64,000 nt of DNA, taken from NCBI RefSeq assembly GCF_044704955.1, contig NC_091989.1:104036001-104100000 (forward strand), written 5' to 3'. This DNA is from Pristiophorus japonicus. Lineage: Eukaryota. The notes below the pieces were generated by a model. It searched no databases. It was not told the origin of the DNA and worked only from the letters and a program-made list of their open reading frames with translations. Position numbers and translations under genes: made by a program. Of this stretch, positions 17,640 through 33,165 are shown one piece after another. Every line of letters starts with the position of its first letter. Within the stretch, counting starts at the first letter, position 1.

Positions 17640-20600
17640 TTAAGTGGCAGGCTGAAAAATTTTAAGCTGGGTCCAATGTTTCCATTGCCCTTTCCCTCTG
17701 ACATCAATACAAGCACACGTATCTCCACTAATCATAATCTCGTAAGGTCCTACCCACTTCGGGGCGAACCCGGGTTTTCCTGGTGGAACTTTCACCATCA
17801 CACGGGTCCCTGCCTGAGGTACGTCCGGGAAGGCGGTGGCCTCCAGTTTCTTATCGCATTGAGTCTGCCTTTCTCTGGTCTGTTTCCTCATTTCCTGGAG
17901 ACCATTACTCATTTCTAATATATATCTCCTAATTCTATCCCTTAGAGGTCCTACATCTGCCCCTCCTGTAAAAATTCCTTCTGGGAGTTGCATCGCCCTT
18001 CCCATCATTAACTCATAAGGTGATAAGCCCGTTGTTGTACTAGGGACTGCCCTTAGTTTCATCAGGATGATGGGTAACACATCAACCCATGTGGTCCCCA
18101 TCTCGTGGATTGCTTTCGCGATCGTTATCTTAAGGGTTCGATTCATCCGTTCTACCATTCCTGAGCTTTGGGGGTGGTACAGTATATGGAATTTCTGTTT
18201 TATCCCCATTCGTTTACATACGGCCTTTACTACCTTCCCCGTGAAGTGGGTGCCTTGGTCCGAGTCTATCGATAACAGCACCCCCCACCTAGGGATTATT
18301 TCTTCCGCCAGAATTCTAGCTACACTAGTGGCCGTACAGTTCCTTGTTGGGTAAGCTTCCACCCATCGGGTGAACTGATCTATTACCACTAAGCAATATC
18401 GTTTCCCCCTTGAGTTAGGCAGTGGTCCGGTGAAATCTATTTGTATGTTTTCCCATGGCCCTCGGGGTATTGGCTGATGTGCCATTCGTATCTTAATTGG
18501 CTTACCGGGGTTATGTTGTGCACACGTGATACAGCGCGGAGAGTGTTTGGCTATATCCTGCCCCATTCCGGACCACCACCAATCATTTGTGAGCAACTCC
18601 ATCATGGGTCCCCTGCCCACATGAGTCACTCCATGGTGTAATTCCAGCAAGGTTTATTGAATGTAGTTTGGGGCTATGACTTTTCCACCATTTCTCCACA
18701 CTGAATCTATACCAGGTGCCCCGCCCTTGGCCTTCTATGCCTCCTGTTCCTCCAGTGAAACATCGGCGTGTAACCTGACTATATCCACTTCATCCCTCAT
18801 TAAGCTCCCCACCGCCTCAGTCCTTTCTTCCTCGTCTTGCTCCAGAGCTCACTGTGCGGCGGCGTCGGCCGCCTGATTACCTTCCTGCTCCCGGCTTTGT
18901 ACCCTTTAGTGAGCCTTTATTTTTATCACAGCAGCTTGCAGTGGCCCTTCGGCTGCATGCAGTAGAGCCTGGAATCTTTCCTGATGTCAGATGTGTTCTC
19001 CCCCTGTTGTGATGAACCCCCTGCGCTCCTATGCTATCATATAATCATGTACAACTCCAAACGTGTAGCAACTATCTATATAGATATTAACAGTCTTGCC
19101 CCTCGCCAGTTTCAGGGCCTCGGTAAGGGTCACAATCTCAGCAACCTAGGCCAAGAACCCCCCATCTAATTTATCAGATGCCACAGTTTGTAACTGACCA
19201 TTTACCACGGCCCACCCGGTCCGTGGTGTTCCTTCAACATACTTTCTAGACCCATCAACATAGAGGGTCATCTGTGCCCCAATTAGGGGTTCGTTTCCCA
19301 GGCGGCCTTCTATATTTTCACTATCCACTTCCTCACACTGATGCGGCTCTCCTGCCCCCAGGAGGCCGTCAGCTGGGTTTCCTCCTGTCTCCCTGATAAT
19401 TACCACTGACTGATCTACTGGCAATAAGTCGGCCTCCCAGCGTGCTCGGCGCATATTGGAAACCAACCTCAGTTTTCCGGTGTTCAGCATCTCCACTAAA
19501 GTGTGTTTGGTATGCAAGACAATGTCCCCGGTCATAACGGTAGGCTCACTAACCCTCACCGCTCAAGCGGCGCAATCAAGGGCTGCCACAAATCTTGACA
19601 GCCCAGACACCATGGGGGTCTGCTGTGTGGAGCAATATGCAACTGGCCGCTTCTGATCCCCATGTTGTTGTGTTACCACCGCCGCGTAGAATCCTCCCTC
19701 ATTCTCACAATAAATATGGAATAGTTTTTTTGTGTCGGGTAGTCCTAACCCTGGGGCGGACACCAGGGCTTGTTTGAGCAGCTTATAGGCCTTTTCCTGT
19801 TCCTTTTCCCACTCTATAGGATCAGTTGTGGGCCTCCCGCCCTTTACCAATCTCTGAATCGGTTCGGCTAGTTTTTCAAAATCAGGGATAAAGTTCCCAC
19901 TGTAGTTGAATAGCCCCAGTACTTTTCTGACCCCTCGTACAGAAACCGGTCGGGTAATCATCTGTATTGCTACCTTTTGGTCGTTGGGCATGGTTCTGAC
20001 CCCTTGGGATATCTCCTGTCCCAGGTAGGTTACAATTTCCTTACCGATTTGAACCTGAACGGGATTCACCTTAAATCCTCCCTTTTCTAATGTCTCCAAA
20101 ACCGATATGAGCGCTGAACAGTGACCTTCATGGTCCTCCGTGGCTATCAGCAAATCATCCACATACTGTAGCATATTGCTACGATAAAGTGTCAAGTCTA
20201 CGGATTTTAGTATGGAGCTCCTAGCTCTGTGAAATATCGGCGGGCTATTGTGAAACACCTGGGGCAGTCTGGTCCACGTATACTGTCTCCCTCCAAACGT
20301 GAAGGCAAGCTTCTCTTGCAACTCTTGGTCGAGGGGTAGGGACCAGAATCTGTTCATGATATCTAGTACCGTAAATATCTAATGTTGTGGGCTTAGGCCA
20401 TTTAAAATGGTAGCCGGATTTGCCACTATGGGGTGTAGTTTGGGAGTAACCTTGTTCAAGGCTGTATAATCTATAGTAAGCCGGTATGGCCCGTCGTGTT
20501 TCATGACTGGCCACACCGGGGAGTTCGTGGCGCTCTCCGTCTCTCTAATTATTCCCTTTCTTGCCAGGTCAAGTACGATTTTCGATACCACATCTGCTGT

Positions 20601-20940
20601 CTCTGGGTTTATCAGGTATTGCCTGTGTGCCTGGTGCTTGGGCCCTGGGATGTTAATCGGCATCATATTAACGAGGCCCGTGTCCTGCTTCGTTCTAGCC
20701 CAGACCATTTCTAGGGCCTCACATATGACTCGGTACTCCCCCTGCTCTTGTTTCCAATCTCGGACCAATGGTTTGACGCTGCCTATCTTCGCGATGTTGC
20801 ATAAGGGCGCGTCCAAATTGGTCTTATGCCTTTCCGCTTCCGGCCAAATTATTTTGCTCTGTCCAGCATCTATTAATAATTTAAATTCCCTTATCAAATC
20901 TATTCCCAGAATAGTCCCTTTCTTTCGGTCATGTATAATC
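17640..20940 (-). pseudogene. pol: ERV-A pol (protease C-terminus, RT, tether/RNase H, integrase), disrupted
   Basis: GTILGIDLI; NSPVWPV; YRLTIDYTALNK; LDIMNRFWS; TWTRLPQVFHNSP; QYVDD; LYVDGS; IKIKAH; HHCC zinc finger, IDFTGPLP, SDQGTHFTG, HPQSSGMVER; KWVGPY. The integrase ORF 17640-18650 is open. Confidence 0.93.
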
Positions 20941-21650: not shown

Positions 21651-22112
21651 TGTCGAGGAAATTTCTAAGTTAAATTAACTCAGGCGGAGGCTTTCAGAGT
21701 CGTGCTTCGAGACAATTTTATTTAAAAAAGCGAGATATCTCGGAGAGCCTGCTTGGACCGTACCAAGGCAGAAAACTCTCCTGTCCATGCAAATTGTCCC
21801 TATCTTTATACAGAAATAGAATACAGAAATAGAAAAGGAATCTTATTCATTAGTTCCGTGAGGACAAAGGTCGTCTCGGGAGGCACACACTCTATCTGTC
21901 CTTGCATAGTTTCTCCCTGTTCACAGTCTGTTAAGCAGAATATCAGGAGACTCCCTTTTAATACCGGATAGTCATTTAATTACATTTCTAAGTTTCAAGG
22001 CTAAAAAGTGTGGGTGTTGTTCTAGTCCTATTATTTCTTCAAATATAGCAAAAACAGAATTTAACCCTTCCCTTTACCATAAGCCATGGATTCATAGATT
22101 CTTTCTTCCACA
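21651..22112 (-). repeat. ERV-B 3' LTR
   Basis: Near-identical to 30683-31130 (about 9 substitutions plus a few indels by hand count). PPT AAGGAGGGAA on the minus strand at 22114-22123. Confidence 0.95.
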
Positions 22113-22119
22113 ATTCCCT

Positions 22120-24118
22120 CCTTGTTGATCTTTTTTTTTCAGATCAACACAATTTCCTATATTTTCTTCTTGCGCAAAAGGGGGTTCATATCCTTCAGGA
22201 TAGGGTCGCATTTTGAGATATTCGTCTTCATCAAACTTTTCCTCTAAGCGACTTAACCTTCCTTTCATGCATACACTTTTCCTTTCTATTTCGGAGATCA
22301 GGCCTATTGACCAATTACATTTTTTAATTTCGTCCACATTCCGCAAAGGATTATAACCACACCTACGATTACTATGGGCTGTATAGCAAGCTTCAGTACT
22401 GCTGCAGCTTTTGGGGACCACCCGGTAAACACATCCCATCAGTGGTGTACTGTCAAAGAGGTGACTTCGTCTGCGATTCTCACTAGTTGCCCCTTCTTGT
22501 AACTCATTTCGACTCTAAATTGGTGGATGTCTCTGCCTTGCTTTGACAGAGCTTCCTCAATTTTCTTGTCATTCCGTATCAAATTGTGCAGTCTGGTCAG
22601 ATTAATTACGGGGTGTAAGGGTTCAATCTTGTGCATAGACAGATATTTTCTACATTTTGCCATTGCCCAAAGGTATAAGTTCTTTTTACTTCAGGGTCAT
22701 ACAGGGTGTAGACTCTTCTCACGCATTTATTTGTTGGCTTTAATTACCATTTACATACTCCAATGGAGTGCTGCAGTGAGCATGGTTCGTATATGGCGGT
22801 CTGATAGGGACATACTATTCCGAATGGCCACCTAGCACATCCCCTCTGGTGATGTGTCATATTCTTCTCATCGACTCAATCTCCTTTAAATTCTGGGTAC
22901 CAGAAGTTCTGTCCAAACAGCTGGGACATTACTTGGAACTGACACCAAATTTATTTTCGTGTCTTACTTACTATCTCCGCAGTAACGTTACATCCTTTTG
23001 AATTTCAACTGGTATATCTTTTTTTGAGGGTTAATGGTTAAATTAAGAAGCTTATCCCTTTTGTTAATTTCCAGCAACCTTTCCCATGTGTTAGCATGGA
23101 AGGATAATATTTTCCTTTCTAACTCGGCTCTTAATATTTGTCTGATCATTTCTTTAAACAGGCAATGGGTGTACTTGTTTACTCCCTGTTGTTCCTTTAT
23201 TAGGTTCTCCATTTCCTTCTCTGCCCTTTCATTCTGTTCCCAGGTCATTTCGTTTATGACGCAACCTGATATTTGTAATTGCTGTAATCCTTCATCCCAG
23301 GCATTTCTGATTTTTATATCTTCCCCTACCAGTCCTCCGACGGCCTGGATTTTATTTTGTAGGGTCTCGATATCCATGGAGTTCAATGCTCCTATTCCTA
23401 CTCCCACTCCACCTAACACAGTCTCTAATACATCCCATTTCTTTCTTTGGGGTCTTTCTTTTTCAAAAGATACCTTAACACTGGTTGTGTGGTAACCATC
23501 TTCTTTCTTTGGGGGATATTTAATTCGTATTGTTAGATTTAATACACCTGGGGATCTTACCACTGGGATGCAAGTGGTCAGTAATCTTTTTAGATGTCCC
23601 GGGTCCCGGTCTTCTGGGTGGCCAGATTCTTTTACTGACCATTTTACCATGAATGGGTCTCCTCCATTCACCGGGGTGTTATTCATGCACAACATCCGCT
23701 GCCCTTCTACCATACTTGAAAATGAATAACAGAGAAAGTCTTTTCTCTCATCCAGCCCTCCTATGTACCCCCATGTCTTGTTTTTCCCCGTGCTGTGGGT
23801 ACACTTCATCCACACATCGGCCTGGTATTCTATGAACAACTGATACCCTTTCCCCAATATAAACTGGAATTCCCCTCTTTCTTCTTTCATTCCACATGCC
23901 TCACATCATGCCGTAAAGTTCCCTACTTTACAACTTTGGCCTACTGGGCATATAAAATTGCCTTGTTGCCTTGCACTATTACTTCTTTCCCATACCATAT
24001 TTCCCTTCCATACTCTTCCTTCTTTTAGAACTTCTTCCTCCTTCCGGGAGTTCCCTGTCGCTAAAATGATCAGCATACCTAACGTCCATTTATAATTTTT
24101 CCAAGAGTCCCTTCCCAT
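22120..24118 (-). pseudogene. env: ERV-B env, class III (HERV-S/ERV-L-related)-type, multiple stops and frameshifts
   Basis: Signal peptide MGRDSW...LGMLIILATG. Furin site RKK(R>W) at ~23435, then DVLETVLGGVGVGIGALNSMDIETLQNKI and heptad repeats. Cys-rich region. HH*WDVFTGWSPKA at ~22445, followed by the TM IQPIVIVGVVIILCG. No ISD or CX6CC. Confidence 0.82.
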
Positions 24119-24525: not shown

Positions 24526-27500
24526 TTAGTCAGGCAATCGTAGTACGTCCTGGTTCGATGCCTTTTCTTTTGGCTGTATTTCGTCGGGAAAATAATATTT
24601 ACAACAGGTTGCATGCACCCAATTTGGATGCTTTTCCAACTTCAGCGCGGTTTGTGTTGTGAGAATTATCTGATATGGTCCTTTCCACCTAGGAGAAAAG
24701 GATTCTTTGTTTAATGTTTTTACCAACACTTGGTCTCCAGGCCTGAAAGGGTGCATATTTCCTTCCGACGGGGGCACCTGTGTCTGCTTTATTTGTTCAT
24801 GCAGACTCCTTGCTATTTCACACATGGCCTGAGCATACTTTAGTGATTTTTCATCATTCCAAATTAATGCTATTTTTTCAGCTGCCAGTGGTGGTTTTAT
24901 GCCAGTAGGCATTGGTCTTCCCAATAAGGCTTCATGTGGTGTCAAACCAGTGTTTCGGTTTTTCTGGTTTCTCATTGTATACAATACCAATAGTAAGGCA
25001 TCTGGCCACTTTAGTCCAGTCTCCTGACATACCTTGGTAAGGGTAGATTTTATTATCCCATTTACTCTTTCTACCATTCCCGAGGACTGTGGCTGATATG
25101 GTAGATGTAACTTCCACTGGAAACCTGACGTTTCTGCAAGATTTTGCACTATTTTTCCAGTGAAGTGTGTTCCCCTGTCACTGTTGATTCCCATAGGTAT
25201 CCCATTACTTGGTACTATTTCTTTAAATAGAATTTGTACTACTATTCGGGCATCGTCTCTCCCAGTGGCGTATGCTTCTACCCACCTTGTGAACATGTCT
25301 ATTATGACTAATAGGTACTTAAGACCTGATACTGGAGGCATGTGGACAAAATCAATTTGCAAATTTTCAAAGGGCATACTTGGCTGGGGTAGAAGATCAT
25401 ATTCAGCAGGTGTTTTACCTCTGTTATTTTGTTGACAAATTTGGCATGTTCTAGCAACTTTCTCAATTACTACTGTTATTCCTGGTGCATACCACTGTGC
25501 ATTAATAGCATGTATCATCCATCCTTTGCCCATGTGAGCCTGACCATGTGCTAGGCGAGACAGGGGCAAAAATAGAGATCTAGGGCAAACAGTTCGCCCA
25601 TCAGGGTGACACCAGATGTCGTTTTTGAGAAAACAACCCTGGTTTTCCCAAGTTCTTATTTCCTGCATGGTAACTTGTTGTTGGGCTGTTTTAAGTTGTT
25701 GGATGTCAAGTACCTGTGGAAGGGAAACTGAGACTGCTTGAAGGCAGTCTGCCTGTGCTGAAGCGGCCTGTTTGGCTGCTTCGTCAGCCCTCCTACTGAT
25801 ACTTCATCCTCACCGGTTGTGTGAGCTGCACATTTGATAATGGCTACCTTACTTGGCAACTGAATGGCATCTAATAGATTAAGCACCAGTTGAGAGTGCT
25901 TAATATGCTTTCCACCAGAGGTGGTAAAGCCTCTGTTTTTCCACAGTTGTCCAAAATCATGGACTACACCGAATGCATATCTGGAATCAGTATAGATATT
26001 AGCAGTTTGATCTTTAGCTATTATACAAGCTCTAGTGAGGGCAAACAATTCAGCAGCCTGAGCCGAGGTTCCGGGAGGCAGGGCGAATGCTTCAACAGTT
26101 TCGTGGGGATTTACAATAGCATAGCCTGCCAACAGCAAGTCATCCGACGGCCTGTACGATGATCCATCCGTATAGAGAATAAGATCAGGATTGTCCATGG
26201 GCTCTGTGAGCAAATCTGGTTTTGGTAAGGTGGCTATTTCCCCTGTTAACAGACAATCATGCTGGTCTGGATCCTCTATTTCTCTAGTAGGAAGAAAGGT
26301 GGCTGGGTTTACTACCGGTGCGCGTCGAAAGGTATAGTTAGGGTGTGACAGCAGTAATACTTCATAACCTGTTCTTCTAGACGCTGTAAAGTGTTGCGTG
26401 GCAGCTGAATTCAAAAGTAATAACACAGCATGGGCTGTAATGACAGCACATGGATAATACAAAACAATAGGTACCGACTTCTCCACCATGACTGCAGTAG
26501 CAGCTACAGCACGAAGACATGCTGGCATTCCCCTTACTACTGGAGGCAGCAAAACCGAATAATAAGCAACTGGTCTATTTCCCCCACCATGTTCTTGGGT
26601 TAGTACTGCGGTTGCAAATCCTTCTTTCTCATTCACATACATCTGAAAAGGTTTACGATAATTCGAAGTCCCAACGCAGGAGCATTAGTAATGGCTTTCT
26701 TTAACTGTTTAAATGCCTCCTCTCTCTCTGGGGTCCACTCCACCTTGGGTGGGGCATCATTTAGGGCAGCTGATCTTAGGACCGCATCCCATTCTCGATA
26801 ATCGGGGATCCATTGTCTACAGTACCCAACCATCCCCAAAAATGACAAGATATCCTTCTTTGTCTTTGGTATGGTGGCACTTTGAATTGTCTGAATTCTT
26901 TCTGGTCCTAGCTGCCTCTGCCCTTGAGATATGTGAAAACCCAGGTACTGGACTTGAGTCTGACAAAATTGTAACTTTGGTAACGACACTCGGTGCCCTC
27001 TTTTACATAGGTGCTGTAACAGTTTCAGGGAGTCTTGCATGCACCTGTATCCGTGGCTAGAAGCCACAAGCAAATCATCCGCATACTGCAACAGCACAGA
27101 CTGGTCTGATAATGAACAGTCTTCAAGGTCTCTTTTTACTGCTGCTGCATATACTGCGGGGCTTTCGGTGTATCCTTGGGGCAATCTGGTCCATGTGTAC
27201 TGCTGCTTCTTGTGGGTGAAAGCAAACAGATACTGACTTTCTTGATTTAACGGGATGGAGAAAAAAGCTGAACACAGGTCTATCACAGTAAAGACAGTTG
27301 CTGTTGGTGGTATCGCAGATAGTATAATGTTGGTGTCCGGTACCACAGGGGTGATAGGGACTACTATCTTATTAATAGCTCTCAGATCTTGCACTAATCT
27401 CCATTCATTCGGCCTATTAACCTTTGGTATGGGCAGTATCGGAGTGTTACACGGGATCTGTGTCTTTTTTAAAACTCCTTGTTCCAACAATGCAGAAATG

Positions 27501-28681
27501 ACTGGCTCTATCCTATCTTCTGCCTCTGGAGGCTGTCTGTACTGCCTAATGCTTGGCAACACGGCGTTCTTTATCAATTATACCCGATGGGGTACTGCAG
27601 AATGTACTTGCCCAACATATTTCTTATGCTTTGCCCAAAGTTCAGAAGATACTTGATTCAATGCCATTGGCAGCTTAGGGCTTGGTTGTTCCGGGGGTTG
27701 CTGTTTTTCAAAAGTGGAGGCATGATTTTTACCTTTCCACTGGAGAATCCCCCCGTTGTGGGTGATAAAGTCTATCTGAACATTTTGCAGTTTTATTACT
27801 GCCCAAGGTTGATAGCCTTGTTGCTGTTTTTCTTTTTCTATTCCTACAATCATCGGACCCATATCTTTAGGTTTCGCTGGCGGTTTTGTAGCCAATGTCA
27901 GATGGGGTGTCGAGTTCACTTTTCTATACCGCTGCTGCTGTAAGGGTGTCAAATCAATGGCTACCCCCAATCCTTCTGGTCCAAAATAAATGTGGGGCGT
28001 AGCTTCTACTATTTCTTCTTTTTTTAAAAAGGATTGTACCAGACACTGGTAAGTTTCAGCTTTTTGTCGAATGTACCAGGCTGTACAATGAAGCTGAACT
28101 GCCTCAAAGCTTGTCAAAATTATATACATCAATTCTTCAGTATTAGGGTCGATTTTAGCTTTTAAATTTTGTATAACTTCATGTATCAAAGGGGAGTAGA
28201 AGTTGCCATTCAATTGCCAACAATAGAGGGCAGCCTTTTCTTTGTTATCCTCCCTTTTCTCTTCTTTAATCCCATTAAAGAACTGATGAATTTTATTTGG
28301 AGGGAGCTCCATGAACATTCCTTCCTTTGTGTAATAAATTGTGGCTCCTAGTTTGCACAAAGTCTGTCTTCCCAATAAAGAGAGAGGTGTTGTTTTCGAG
28401 ACTATCAAAGTCTCATCATTAACTGATTGTCCTTCAATTATCAATTTGGTAGGTTCAGATAAAAATTCTTTCATGGGGATACCGGCCACACCCATACTTA
28501 AGACGGTTGTGTTGCTTACAGGTAATCCCACAGAGGATGGTACAGAAGACATAGTAGCACCGGTATCCACCAGGAATTTCACATAAGCGTCTCCTACTTT
28601 TACTACTGCCAAAAGGTTTTCTTCTATGTCTGCTGATAAGTGGAGGGCTGCCGCCTGTACCACTAAGCCTCCGGGGCATCC
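24526..28681 (-). pseudogene. pol: ERV-B pro-pol: protease, 2H-phosphoesterase-like insert, RT, RNase H, integrase
   Basis: FLVDTGA and LLGRQTL; LHCTA...PHLTL; CNTPILP, WRLVQDLRAIN, IDLCSAFFSIP, TWTRLPQGY, QYADD; YTDGS, SAQAAEL, YTDSRY; H-H-C-C, QIDF, SDRGTHF, PQSSGMVER, WKGPY. One stop at 27578 and frameshifts near 26640 and 25700-25800. Confidence 0.96.
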
Positions 28682-30344
28682 CTATGCTGATTGGTGCGGG
28701 TTGGGGTTAGAGAACGAAAACTGAGGGGCCAATGAAGGTGGAGGTTCGGGGAAATCCCCTTGTAACCCTCCACCCTGTTTCCTCCACCCTGTTTCGGGGG
28801 GCATCTGCAATCGCGAGCCGAATGCCCTTTCCTTCCGCAATTTCTATACTCATCTTGGGAGCGGTCTCGTTGGGGCCACTGTTCTCTCCCTCTTCCTCGT
28901 CCTCGTCCCCCAAACCCTCCTCTATTATTCTGTGCTTGTCCTCTTCCCTTTTGCTGATAGTACTGACCTGCTGTTTTAGCCTTATTTTCCTTATAGGTGA
29001 ATAGTCCCTCCCTATCCATGTTGGCCAAGACTGTAATTGTTTCCATCCAACTTTTTCCTTGCCAGTCCAAAACCTTAATTTTATAGGTTCTCGCGTGTTG
29101 CGGCAACATACAATTTAACAAGGTTTGCACTGCCAAATGTTCATTTTGATCCATTGGTATTCCTGCATGCTCGTCCCAACTATTTTTCCATCTGCCTGCA
29201 AAATCTATTATTGATTCTTCTGCTTTCTGCAGACAGCTCATGACTTCCCCTATATCTCCATGCTTTTTAGCTCCCTTTAGTATGGCATCCTTGCCCCTGT
29301 GCTGCAACCAATGTTCCCGGGACTCATTTCCTTCTTCCTCATTATCTTCCGTTTTCTCCGGCGGGTATAGGGAACATATCTTTTACCCCCTGCCAAGAGG
29401 ACCCATATGCTGCCTGCAGTAATAATTTCACATCTCCGGGGAGGGGGTTATAAATGGTACAGGTTTGCTCAAGCCAGTTGTGAAAGGCTACTGGCTTCTT
29501 AACAGGATTAGGGGCAGCTGATATCATATCCCGAGCTTCCCCCGGGATATGTCCAGGGCTTTAGGACAGCCGTGGTTCCAATCATTACACGGGGGGCTTG
29601 TGTCGTTGGGGTAGTGGTGGAATCGGCCTGTCTTATGGTATTCCTGGTATTCATTCCAGGGTCAGGGTTGGGGTTTTTGCCTTCGGCTCCTCCACTTGCC
29701 TCTCCTTCCCCGTTTTCATCCTCTGGTGGGTTTTGGGGTCGTGCTTGCATTCGTCGCCTAGAGGCCTGATCTAGCTGGGCAGCCACTATTTCTATGATCT
29801 CCTGCCAATCATCCGGCTTGGTGGTTGGAAGACGGTAATATAAGCCGACAGGTGAAGCGGTCATAACCGGGACACTCGGGGGACTATAAGAGGGAAGGGG
29901 GTTCTCCTTACCCTCCTCCTCTTTCTTTTTATTTTTAGGGGGCTGGTGCCTTTTTGCCACCTCTGTCCATTTTTTAAAACAATTCTCCATATAATCTTTA
30001 TCCCAAGTGGGGTCCCCCACCTCATCTTTGGTGGTCTGTCTCCATTCCTCAATTAAGGACAATTTAAAACTTCCTCCATATGGCCAATCCCCATCAGACC
30101 AACCATACAAATCACCACTAAACGTTACCGCGTATCTGTCGTCTCCTGTTTCTTTAATTACAGTGTCCGCCGGCGAGCCGGGCGGCACAATAGGATCTCC
30201 TACCTTCTCTCGTTGCTTTGCTACCTTACGGATGCTTTTCTCAGTCTTAGGATGTACTTTCATTCTTTCAGTTGAGAGGTCGTCTTTCTTTCCTTTTATA
30301 GGAGCTGGGCGTGAGCGCCCTGCTCGACTAGAGCCGTTTCCCAT
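28682..30344 (-). pseudogene. gag: ERV-B gag, frameshifted; ends in a TAG read-through codon
   Basis: Myristoylation-type start MGNGSS, WPYGGSF, LPSYSPP, capsid-like region, zinc knuckle E(C>Y)RNCGRKGHSARDC. In the pol frame ...NPHQSA-TAG(28684-28682)-GGA TGC CCC. Confidence 0.9.
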
Positions 30345-30664
30345 TCTTCCGGGTGCAACGTCTCGCGATCTTTTCTGAAATGAGAGTTAGGACAATCCTA
30401 CAAAATATACAATAATTTACAAAGCGCTCACCGGTGTTCTCTTATCCGCTCAGCTCGGGGTCTCCTTTTGCCTTTTTGTTATTTTAGCTTCTTTGCGGTA
30501 ACTACCTTAAATTATGCCTCACCCTCCAGGGGATCTCGGCAGCTCGTTCCCCTTTCAGATGGGACGGCCTAGGCACCTTCCTCCTTTAAGCTAGGAAGGT
30601 CCTTAAAATTCCTCTTTTCTCTTTAAAAGTTAAATTTAGTTCTTTTGGATCTCGTTTTTTAGAG

Positions 30665-30683
30665 ATCCTGCCTGACTACGCCT
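30665..30683 (-). promoter_or_regulatory. ERV-B primer binding site, tRNA-Ser type
   Basis: Minus strand GGCGTAGTCAGGCAGGAT versus the canonical Ser PBS TGGCGTAGTCGGCAGGAT. Confidence 0.8.
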
Positions 30684-31130
30684 AAATTAACTCAGGCGGA
30701 GGCTTTCAGAGTCGTGCTTCGAGACAATTTTATTTTAAAAAGCGAGATATCTCGGAGAGCCTGCTTGGACCGTACCAAGGCAGAAAACTCTCCTGTACAA
30801 GCAAATTGTCCCTATCTTTATACAGAAATAGAATACAGAAATAGAAAAGGAATCTTATTCATTAGTTCCGTGGTCATCTAGGGAGGCACACACTCTATCT
30901 GTCCTTGCATAGTTTCTCCCTGTTCACAGTCTGATAAGCAGAATATCAGGAGACTCCCTTTTAATACCGGATAGTCATTTAATTACATTTCTAAATTTCA
31001 AGACTAAAAAGTGTGGGTGTTGTTCTAGTCCTATTATTTCTTTAAATATAGCAAAAACAGAATTTAACCCTTCCCTTTACCATAAGCTTAATAAGATTCC
31101 TTTTCTAATTCATAGATTCTTTCTTCCACA
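30683..31130 (-). repeat. ERV-B 5' LTR (lacks the terminal 20 bp of U5)
   Basis: Matches 21671-22112. Confidence 0.95.
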
Positions 31131-31244: not shown

Positions 31245-33165
31245 ATAGATACCGAGAACACAATACTGCAGAAACTCTAGAGGAGTATAAGAAGTGTAGG
31301 GGTGAAATTAAAAAAGATAACAGTAAAGCAGAGAGATGGCATGTAAGAATATTGGCAAGTAAAATCAGGGAAAACCCAAAGATGTTTTACAAATACATTA
31401 AGAGCAAGAGGATAACTAGAGAATGATTGGGGCCTATTAGAGATTATAAAAGTAATCTGTTTGTTGAGGCAGAAAGTGTGGGTATGATTCTTAATGAATA
31501 CTTTGCATCCGTTTTCACAAAAGGGGTGTGCAATTCAGACAATACAGAGGGAGGAGGAGTATGAAATATTAGACGAGATAAACATAGTGAGAGCGGAAGT
31601 ATTAAGTGGCTTAGCAGCTTTGAAAATGGGTAAATCCCTAGACTTGGATGAAATGCATCACAGGCTGTTAACGGAAGCAAAAGAGGAAATAGCAGAGGCT
31701 CTAACCATCACTTTCCAGTCCTCTCTGGCTACAGGTGTGGTGCCAGAGGACTGGAGGACTGCTAATGGTATACCTTTGTTTAAAAAGGGAGAATGGGATA
31801 GACCGAGTAATTACAGACCAGTCAGCCTAACCTTGGTGATGGGAAAATTATTGAAAAAAATCCAGAGGGCCAGGATTAATCTTCATTGGGAAAGACATGC
31901 ATTAATCAAGGACAGTCAGCATGGATTTGTTAAGGGAAGTCGTGTCTGACTATCTTGATTGAATTTTTCGAGGAGATTACCAGGAATTTCAATGTTGTGT
32001 TTGGATTTTAGCAAGGCTTTTGATAAGGTCCCACATGGCAGACTGGTCACGAAAGTAAAAGCCCATGGGATCCAGAGCAAAATGGCAAGTTGTATCCAAA
32101 TTGGCTAAGAGGCAGGAAGCAAAGGGTCATGGTTGAAGGGTATTTTTGTGACTACAATGCTGTATCCAGCGGGGTTCCGCAGGGCTCAGTGCTGAGTCTC
32201 TAACTTTTTGTGGTATATATCAATCACTTGGTCTTGATTGTTGGGGGTATGATTAAGAACTTTGCGGACAAAACTAAAATAGGCTGTGAGGTTGGTAAGG
32301 AAAAAGAAAGCGGCGGACTGCAGGAACATATCAATATACTGGTCAGGTGGGTAGAACAGTGGCAAATGGAATTCAATCTGGATAAATGTGAGTTAATGCA
32401 TTTGGGGAGGTCTAACAAGGCAAGGGAATACACATTAAATGGTATGACACTGAAAAGTGTAGAAGAACAAAGGGACCTTGGAATGCAGGTCCACAGATCC
32501 CTGAAGGTAGCAGGCCAGGTAGATAAGGTGGTTAAGAGGCATATGCAATATTTGCCTTTATTAGTCGATGCATGGAATAGTAAGGGCGTTATGCATGAAC
32601 TGTATAAAACATTGATAGGCTGCAGCTGGAGTATTGTGTGCAGTTCTGGTCACCACATTGCAGGATAGAGGTGATTGTACTGGACGGGGTGCAGAGAAGT
32701 TTTACCAAAATGTTGCTGGCCTGGAGGTTTTTGATATGAGGAAAGATTGGAGATGCTGGGCCTGTTTTCTTTAGAACAGAGGAGGCCTGATTGAGATGTA
32801 TAAAATTATGAGGGGCCTGGATAGAGTGGATAGGAAGGACCTGTTTCCTTTGGCAGAGGGATCAACAACCAGGGGGCATAGATTTAAAGTAATTGGAGGG
32901 AGGTTTAGAGGAAATATGAGGGAAAGTGTCTTCACTCAGAGGGTGGTGAGGGTCTGGAACTCACTGCTTGAAAGGGTGGTAGAGGAAGAAACCCTCACCA
33001 TATTTAAACAATACTTGGATGAGCACTTAAAGTCCGGTATCTAGAGGGTTACAGACCAAGAGCTGGAAAGTGGGATTAGGCTGGATAGCTCATGTTCGAC
33101 CAGCACGGAAATGATGGGCTGAAATGGCCTCGTTCTGTGTTGTAAATTTCTATGATTCTATGATT
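31245..33165 (+). mobile_element. CR1 LINE ORF2 RT and 3' tail, right part of the element split by ERV-A
   Basis: PEDWRTAN, NYRPVSLT, QHGFVKG, DFSKAFD, GVPQGSVL, FADKT, WNSL, and (TTCTATGA)n tail. Confidence 0.92.

Follow-up and report, generated by a model that had tools for sequence, protein, structure and literature searches.

We analysed a 64,000-nucleotide stretch of the genome of Pristiophorus japonicus (NCBI RefSeq assembly GCF_044704955.1, contig NC_091989.1, positions 104,036,001 to 104,100,000; the whole stretch is referred to as the window), which carries on its minus strand an endogenous retrovirus (ERV) of ~9.5 kb between two long terminal repeats (LTRs). The minus-strand frame at 27578–28681 encodes a retroviral protease, then an insert, then the start of the reverse transcriptase (RT), its motifs running in the order DTGA (28567), LLGR (28378), two H-x-T motifs (LHCTA and PHLTL) and the RT start WAKH (27637). 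An earlier reading of the bare sequence (the sequence-only reading) had described these two motifs, with histidines 62 residues apart, as the mark of a 2H phosphoesterase domain lying in about 200 extra residues between protease and RT. Translation of the frame reproduced the motifs, their His codons (Table 1) and the 62-residue spacing, and the extra stretch is present, yet it is smaller than proposed: DTGA and YxDD lie 496 amino acids (aa) apart in the window versus 314–320 aa in reference retroviral genomes (measurable in 12 of 15), and the insert is therefore about 180 residues long. Paired H-hydrophobic-T/S-hydrophobic motifs 50–90 residues apart arose in 13 of 20,000 shuffles of the domain (88 of 20,000 with a looser motif). 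A six-frame profile scan of the whole window gave a single significant match, the insert itself, and no second 2H domain, the env remnant included.

Relatives of the insert are widespread, with named sources that are mostly teleosts but also rays, sharks, a newt and three lizard entries. A phmmer search of 1.84 billion representatives gave 16 matches: 14 with paired His motifs (one imperfect), one near-identical shark protein and one spurious repeat protein; a UniRef protein labelled Pristiophorus japonicus is 93% identical. Profile searching added 160 proteins of 56–672 aa (120 listed) and 110 of 673–2000 aa, and the 2H domain is carried by more than 200 ERV proteins, their sources being teleosts, cartilaginous fish and a newt. 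Conservation of the motifs in related ERVs had been set beforehand as a test of the sequence-only reading, which came through it: the domain is present in 130 of 134 first-round proteins, 107 of them span both sites, and 97 of these 107 keep both H-x-T/S motifs (spacing 61–63 residues in 97), as do 89 of 101 proteins in the long set (673–2000 aa). Median domain identity is ~40%, the best-kept residues being the catalytic His, Thr and Ser and the aromatics of the pocket. Among the 15 reference retroviral genomes one (L077) carries the domain, both motifs included, immediately upstream of RT; the domain profile gave no match in the other 14. Across 86 sequences, related to one another and not independent, domain and RT identities vary together (Spearman 0.87), which fits one old acquisition. 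One protein whose RT is sister to the family of the window ERV (P0241, support 0.87) has between protease and RT an insert of about the same length that lacks HxT/S motifs and a profile match, a degenerate or different domain; a homologue with both motifs (P0012) has an acidic low-complexity stretch before them in place of the protease.

In the 5.9-Gb host genome the window ERV belongs to a large family (150 of 1264 candidates were scored, all 150 at 89–100% domain identity), and both motifs are kept in 19 of 20 fetched loci, the window included, five of which have a stop in the domain. A second ERV family, sharing ~27% identity over protease and insert, keeps both motifs in 30 of 30 loci. This second family (L032–L061, on many contigs) looks younger and shows LHCTA/PHCTL motifs, again 62 residues apart, and many of 150 scored matches to it lie inside open frames of more than 1000 aa. 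The region G000:C3:232.76-232.92 Mb (L029, L030) contains a head-to-tail array of more than 20 copies, spaced ~5355 bases apart, of an internally deleted window-type ERV. This deleted version retains an LTR, part of the protease, the 2H domain and pieces of pol whose frames are shifted, and smaller arrays lie on C10 and C11; the C3 array has the look of a defective provirus amplified in tandem rather than of an array of genes.

The predicted model of the domain has a two-lobed 2H fold, as the sequence-only reading had proposed. In VIA-align CNPase heads the top 21 rows, nearly all of them 2H proteins, and Foldseek agrees on the 2H fold; on the model, the insert is thus a predicted CNPase-like member of the 2H phosphoesterase superfamily. 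CNPase is the nearest structure to the model by a clear margin, the predicted fold being much closer to it than to any known phosphodiesterase of 2'-5' oligoadenylates (2-5A) or cyclic GMP-AMP (cGAMP), and neither AKAP7, ns2 or VP3 nor Acb1 or the poxvirus enzyme was the nearest relative in the structure comparison. PMC4643303 describes Phe235 of CNPase as the base-stacking residue and helix alpha7, after the second motif, as unique to CNPase. At the offset of Phe235 (His1+5), 103 of 107 homologues have Tyr or Phe, the first-strand Tyr is found in 91 of 107, and the Gly at His2+15, in the predicted alpha7 equivalent, is kept in 102 of 107 and is also present in host CNPase. The insert can be regarded as a conserved domain with two histidines that belongs to an old retroviral lineage of fish type, its CNPase-like fold and active-site frame being predicted.

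By analogy with CNPase, we consider it probable, though well short of certain, that the domain acts as a 2',3'-cyclic phosphodiesterase. It would be made as part of Gag-Pol, packaged into the particle and perhaps released by the protease; the two His-x-Thr motifs would then open 2',3'-cyclic phosphates to a 2'-phosphate and a free 3'-OH, the substrate base being stacked on the conserved Tyr, as in CNPase. Its most likely purpose would be to clean the ends left on RNA by metal-independent nucleases in or around the particle (on the tRNA primer or nicked genomic RNA), or alternatively to remove free 2',3'-cyclic nucleotides. Several observations weigh against this assignment. The quality of the model is middling (mean predicted local distance difference test score 70, predicted template modelling score 0.67), and its match to CNPase has a template modelling score of ~0.5 and a root-mean-square deviation of 4–5.5 Å at 15–19% identity. 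The offset of CNPase Val321 (His2+12) is Lys or Arg in 93 of 107 homologues and that of Arg307 (His2−2) is mostly Ala or Val (72 of 107); with these two ligand residues not kept, specificity may have shifted, and changes of substrate are frequent among 2H folds (PMC11410667). No Pfam family, PF05881 (CNPase) included, is matched by the window domain, and one of 60 family members gave a weak Pfam CNPase match (E 0.011, below the cut-off). Any benefit of the domain would also not be universal, because gamma-type retroviruses, with the 14 unmatched reference genomes, replicate without it. Finally, evidence of selection on the insert among genomic copies is only suggestive: the ratio of nonsynonymous to synonymous substitution (pairwise dN/dS), which the sequence-only reading had proposed to measure at the two motifs, is 0.31 (0.19–0.55) for the insert and 0.34 for RT in the window family, but 0.69 (0.38–1.32) versus 0.17 in the second family. 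As the copies were chosen by protein score, dN/dS is weak here, and deep conservation across homologues is the real evidence.

That the insert is weakly constrained in the second family, and that 10 of 107 homologues lack the full motif pair, would suit a mainly non-catalytic spacer that binds RNA or Gag and keeps its fold for structural reasons. We think this very unlikely, given that the catalytic residues and pocket aromatics are the best kept in a domain of such modest overall identity, and that dead ERV copies can be expected to lose motifs.

The sequence-only reading had offered two roles for the domain, healing of 2',3'-cyclic phosphate ends and antagonism of nucleotide second messengers, and had headlined the second. 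The first fits the model best, and the headline is weakened by CNPase being the nearest fold; an immune antagonist is possible but less likely than an enzyme hydrolysing 2',3'-cyclic phosphates. Of the proposed targets, 2-5A is the least probable: that the domain is a 2',5'-phosphodiesterase blocking RNase L in the manner of coronavirus ns2 or rotavirus VP3 seems to us highly improbable. The host does have OAS-like genes, clustered on C8 (16 genome matches), and PMC10400998 reports a functional OAS–RNase L pathway in a cartilaginous fish, which counts in its favour, but the same source reports the pathway lost in ray-finned fish, frogs and salamanders, whereas both motifs are intact in ERVs of killifish, tilapia, pipefish and a newt. 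Because the motifs persist in ERVs of lineages reported to lack OAS–RNase L, 2-5A is unlikely to be the conserved substrate. The OAS-like cluster itself (G000:C8:218.42-218.60 Mb) comprises ~5 genes in both orientations.

A shift to cyclic dinucleotides, in which the domain would degrade 2'3'-cGAMP made on sensing of reverse transcripts and so blunt STING, is unlikely in our estimation. In its favour, a STING ligand-binding domain is present in the host, and phages and avian poxviruses have turned 2H folds into cGAMP phosphodiesterases (PMC11410667). Acb1-labelled proteins occur among the weaker BFVD matches of the model (best E 4.9e-3), and a further phosphate could be bound by the basic residue that stands at the offset of Val321. 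The structure comparison nevertheless holds no pointer to cGAMP, the fold being closer to CNPase, and four 2H enzymes assayed in PMC8406329 left cGAMP uncut.

The same structural evidence that favours a 2',3'-cyclic phosphodiesterase acting on viral RNA would serve equally for a CNPase-type enzyme aimed at host signalling. Such an enzyme would remove 2',3'-cyclic nucleotides, which act as stimulants of endosomal TLR7/8, or would keep cleaved host RNAs, XBP1 mRNA for example, from being religated. The best BFVD matches of the model are a polyprotein (Q2VF30_1, 1072 aa), followed by proteins of walleye epidermal hyperplasia virus 1 (WEHV1; Q9WHI8, E 5.5e-5) and of walleye dermal sarcoma virus (WDSV; A4GTG3, E 3.5e-4), both labelled Envelope polyprotein. 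According to PMC3185748, the Env of WDSV contains a loop of ~170 residues on its cytoplasmic side, between residues 875 and 1044, and the domain may sit in the Env of walleye viruses; a cytosol-facing copy on Env retained in the endoplasmic reticulum would suit a host target. Its location in the loop is a guess from size. 2',3'-cGMP has been linked to TLR7 and CNPase to XBP1 splicing; we regard a host-signalling role as improbable.

It is doubtful, but would be the most novel outcome, that a CNPase catalytic domain was captured once by an ancient retroviral lineage and has stayed functional in sharks, rays, teleosts and newts, mostly in Pol and possibly in an Env loop of walleye viruses, as a particle-borne enzyme that destroys a nucleotide of innate immunity (either 2',3'-cyclic nucleotides or cGAMP). 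If true, the domain would be a nuclease for second messengers encoded by a retrovirus, and no tested example of one was found in the literature searched. Few accessory enzymes are known in retroviral Pol. The analysis narrows the question, with a predicted CNPase-like fold and 2-5A an unlikely conserved substrate, to RNA end-healing or immune antagonism, and either role would bear on what fish-type retroviruses need and mammalian gamma-retroviruses do without.

The locus is one dead copy among many and ordinary by itself. The sequence-only reading had both motifs intact in an open frame, which holds locally, yet an in-frame TAA at 27580–27578 lies just inside RT; with this stop, and gag, RT, RNase H and integrase pieces spread across several frames, the window provirus cannot make Gag-Pol and is dead as a source of it. 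We assign the element to class I (gamma/epsilon-like) ERVs because its nearest solved RT structure is of the murine leukaemia virus (MLV) type, and it has an LTR-gag-pro-pol-env-LTR order, an MLV-like RT and an MLV-type integrase C-terminus. The RT tree contained no named WDSV or WEHV sequence, and the assignment extends to class I only. The tRNA-Ser 3'-end motif, to which the primer-binding-site-like stretch is imperfectly complementary, has 1179 exact matches genome-wide, including long arrays at G000:C23:15-20 Mb with a period of ~1950 bases, and two loci checked on contigs other than C23 are tRNA-Ser(AGA) genes. Elsewhere in the window, a second, more distant RT-like stretch (20001–20705, minus strand, 33% identity to P0001) lies just past the 3' LTR, and many decayed LINE-like (long interspersed nuclear element) repeats with a common 3' tail, which we take to be of CR1 type, occupy 31400–33050 and 35900–63900.

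Table 1 Features of the provirus and its predicted 2H domain, in window coordinates.
Feature	Position	Strand	Remarks
5' LTR	30683..31130	-	457-column match to 21671–22112, 12 mismatches and 3 gaps
Primer-binding-site-like stretch	30664..30683	-	Imperfect complement of the 3' end of host tRNA-Ser(AGA)
gag remains, two frames	28663..30386	-	Zinc knuckle in 3' piece, zf-CCHC E 0.001, below curated cut-off
Retroviral aspartic protease	28337..28609	-	Pfam RVP E 1.5e-8
Predicted CNPase-like 2H phosphoesterase domain	27734..28252	-	Between protease and RT; model residues 7–179
First-strand Tyr	28223..28225	-	Likely equivalent of CNPase Tyr168, judged from position only
First catalytic-type motif H-C-T (LHCTA)	28082..28090	-	His codon 28090–28088; His in 105 of 107 homologues spanning both sites
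Tyr five residues past His1	28073..28075	-	Offset of CNPase Phe235; host CNPase exon has Phe there
Second catalytic-type motif H-L-T (PHLTL)	27896..27904	-	His codon 27904–27902; His in 105 and Ser/Thr in 104 of 107 homologues
Predicted helix past His2 with conserved Gly	27818..27871	-	Putative equivalent of CNPase helix alpha7; model helix 134–151, local score ~90
Reverse transcriptase	26633..27637	-	Pfam RVT_1 E 2.7e-27; in-frame stop 27580–27578, later frame change
RT connection and RNase H	25656..26684	-	Pfam RNase_H E 1.7e-19; separate frame
Integrase	24526..25803	-	Pfam rve and MLVIN_C; separate frame
Probable env remnant	22988..23905	-	Judged from position; no Pfam match
3' LTR	21671..22112	-	Pair of 5' LTR; purine-rich tract 22113–22126 precedes it

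Domains of this kind have a history in fish retroviruses. The sequence-only reading had mentioned similar inserts in some epsilon-like retroviruses of fish, and PMC4977317 and PMC9503650 bear this out: 2H/CNPase-like domains of fish retroviruses are credited there to Mazumder et al. 2002 and Basta et al. 2009, the latter cited in PMC4977317 for CNPase encoded by some epsilon-like fish ERVs. In the literature searched (listings and abstract openings, most subscription papers lying outside), no functional test of a retroviral 2H/CNPase-like domain was found, and the string 'retrovir' is absent from the main text of two surveys of viral 2H enzymes (PMC10835031, PMC11410667). The insert is thus a new cartilaginous-fish member of a family outlined two decades ago, since 2002, and apparently never assayed. 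Like those domains it is of the 2H kind and belongs to a retrovirus of fish type (class I, epsilon-like), but its lineage, from cartilaginous fish, is only 20–40% identical to the others and has an extra segment of ~12 residues before His1; the WDSV and WEHV1 matches differ further in being labelled Env, whereas the window domain lies in Pol. With the viral 2',5'-phosphodiesterases (ns2 of mouse hepatitis virus, the C-terminal domain of rotavirus VP3) and AKAP7/18 the insert shares the 2H fold and motifs, and with the cGAMP phosphodiesterases (phage Acb1, the avian poxvirus enzyme) the 2H fold and a viral origin. CNPase has an N-terminal domain ahead of its catalytic domain. The best structural and profile match remains the catalytic domain of vertebrate CNPase and fish RICH (PF05881; PDB 2xmi, 1woj, 2i3e), from which the insert differs in its shorter His–His spacing, its two replaced ligand positions, its score below the Pfam cut-off and its embedding in Pro-Pol rather than behind CNPase's own N-terminal domain, and with which it has in common the HxT motifs, the aromatic at His1+5 and a predicted helix alpha7 with its Gly at His2+15.
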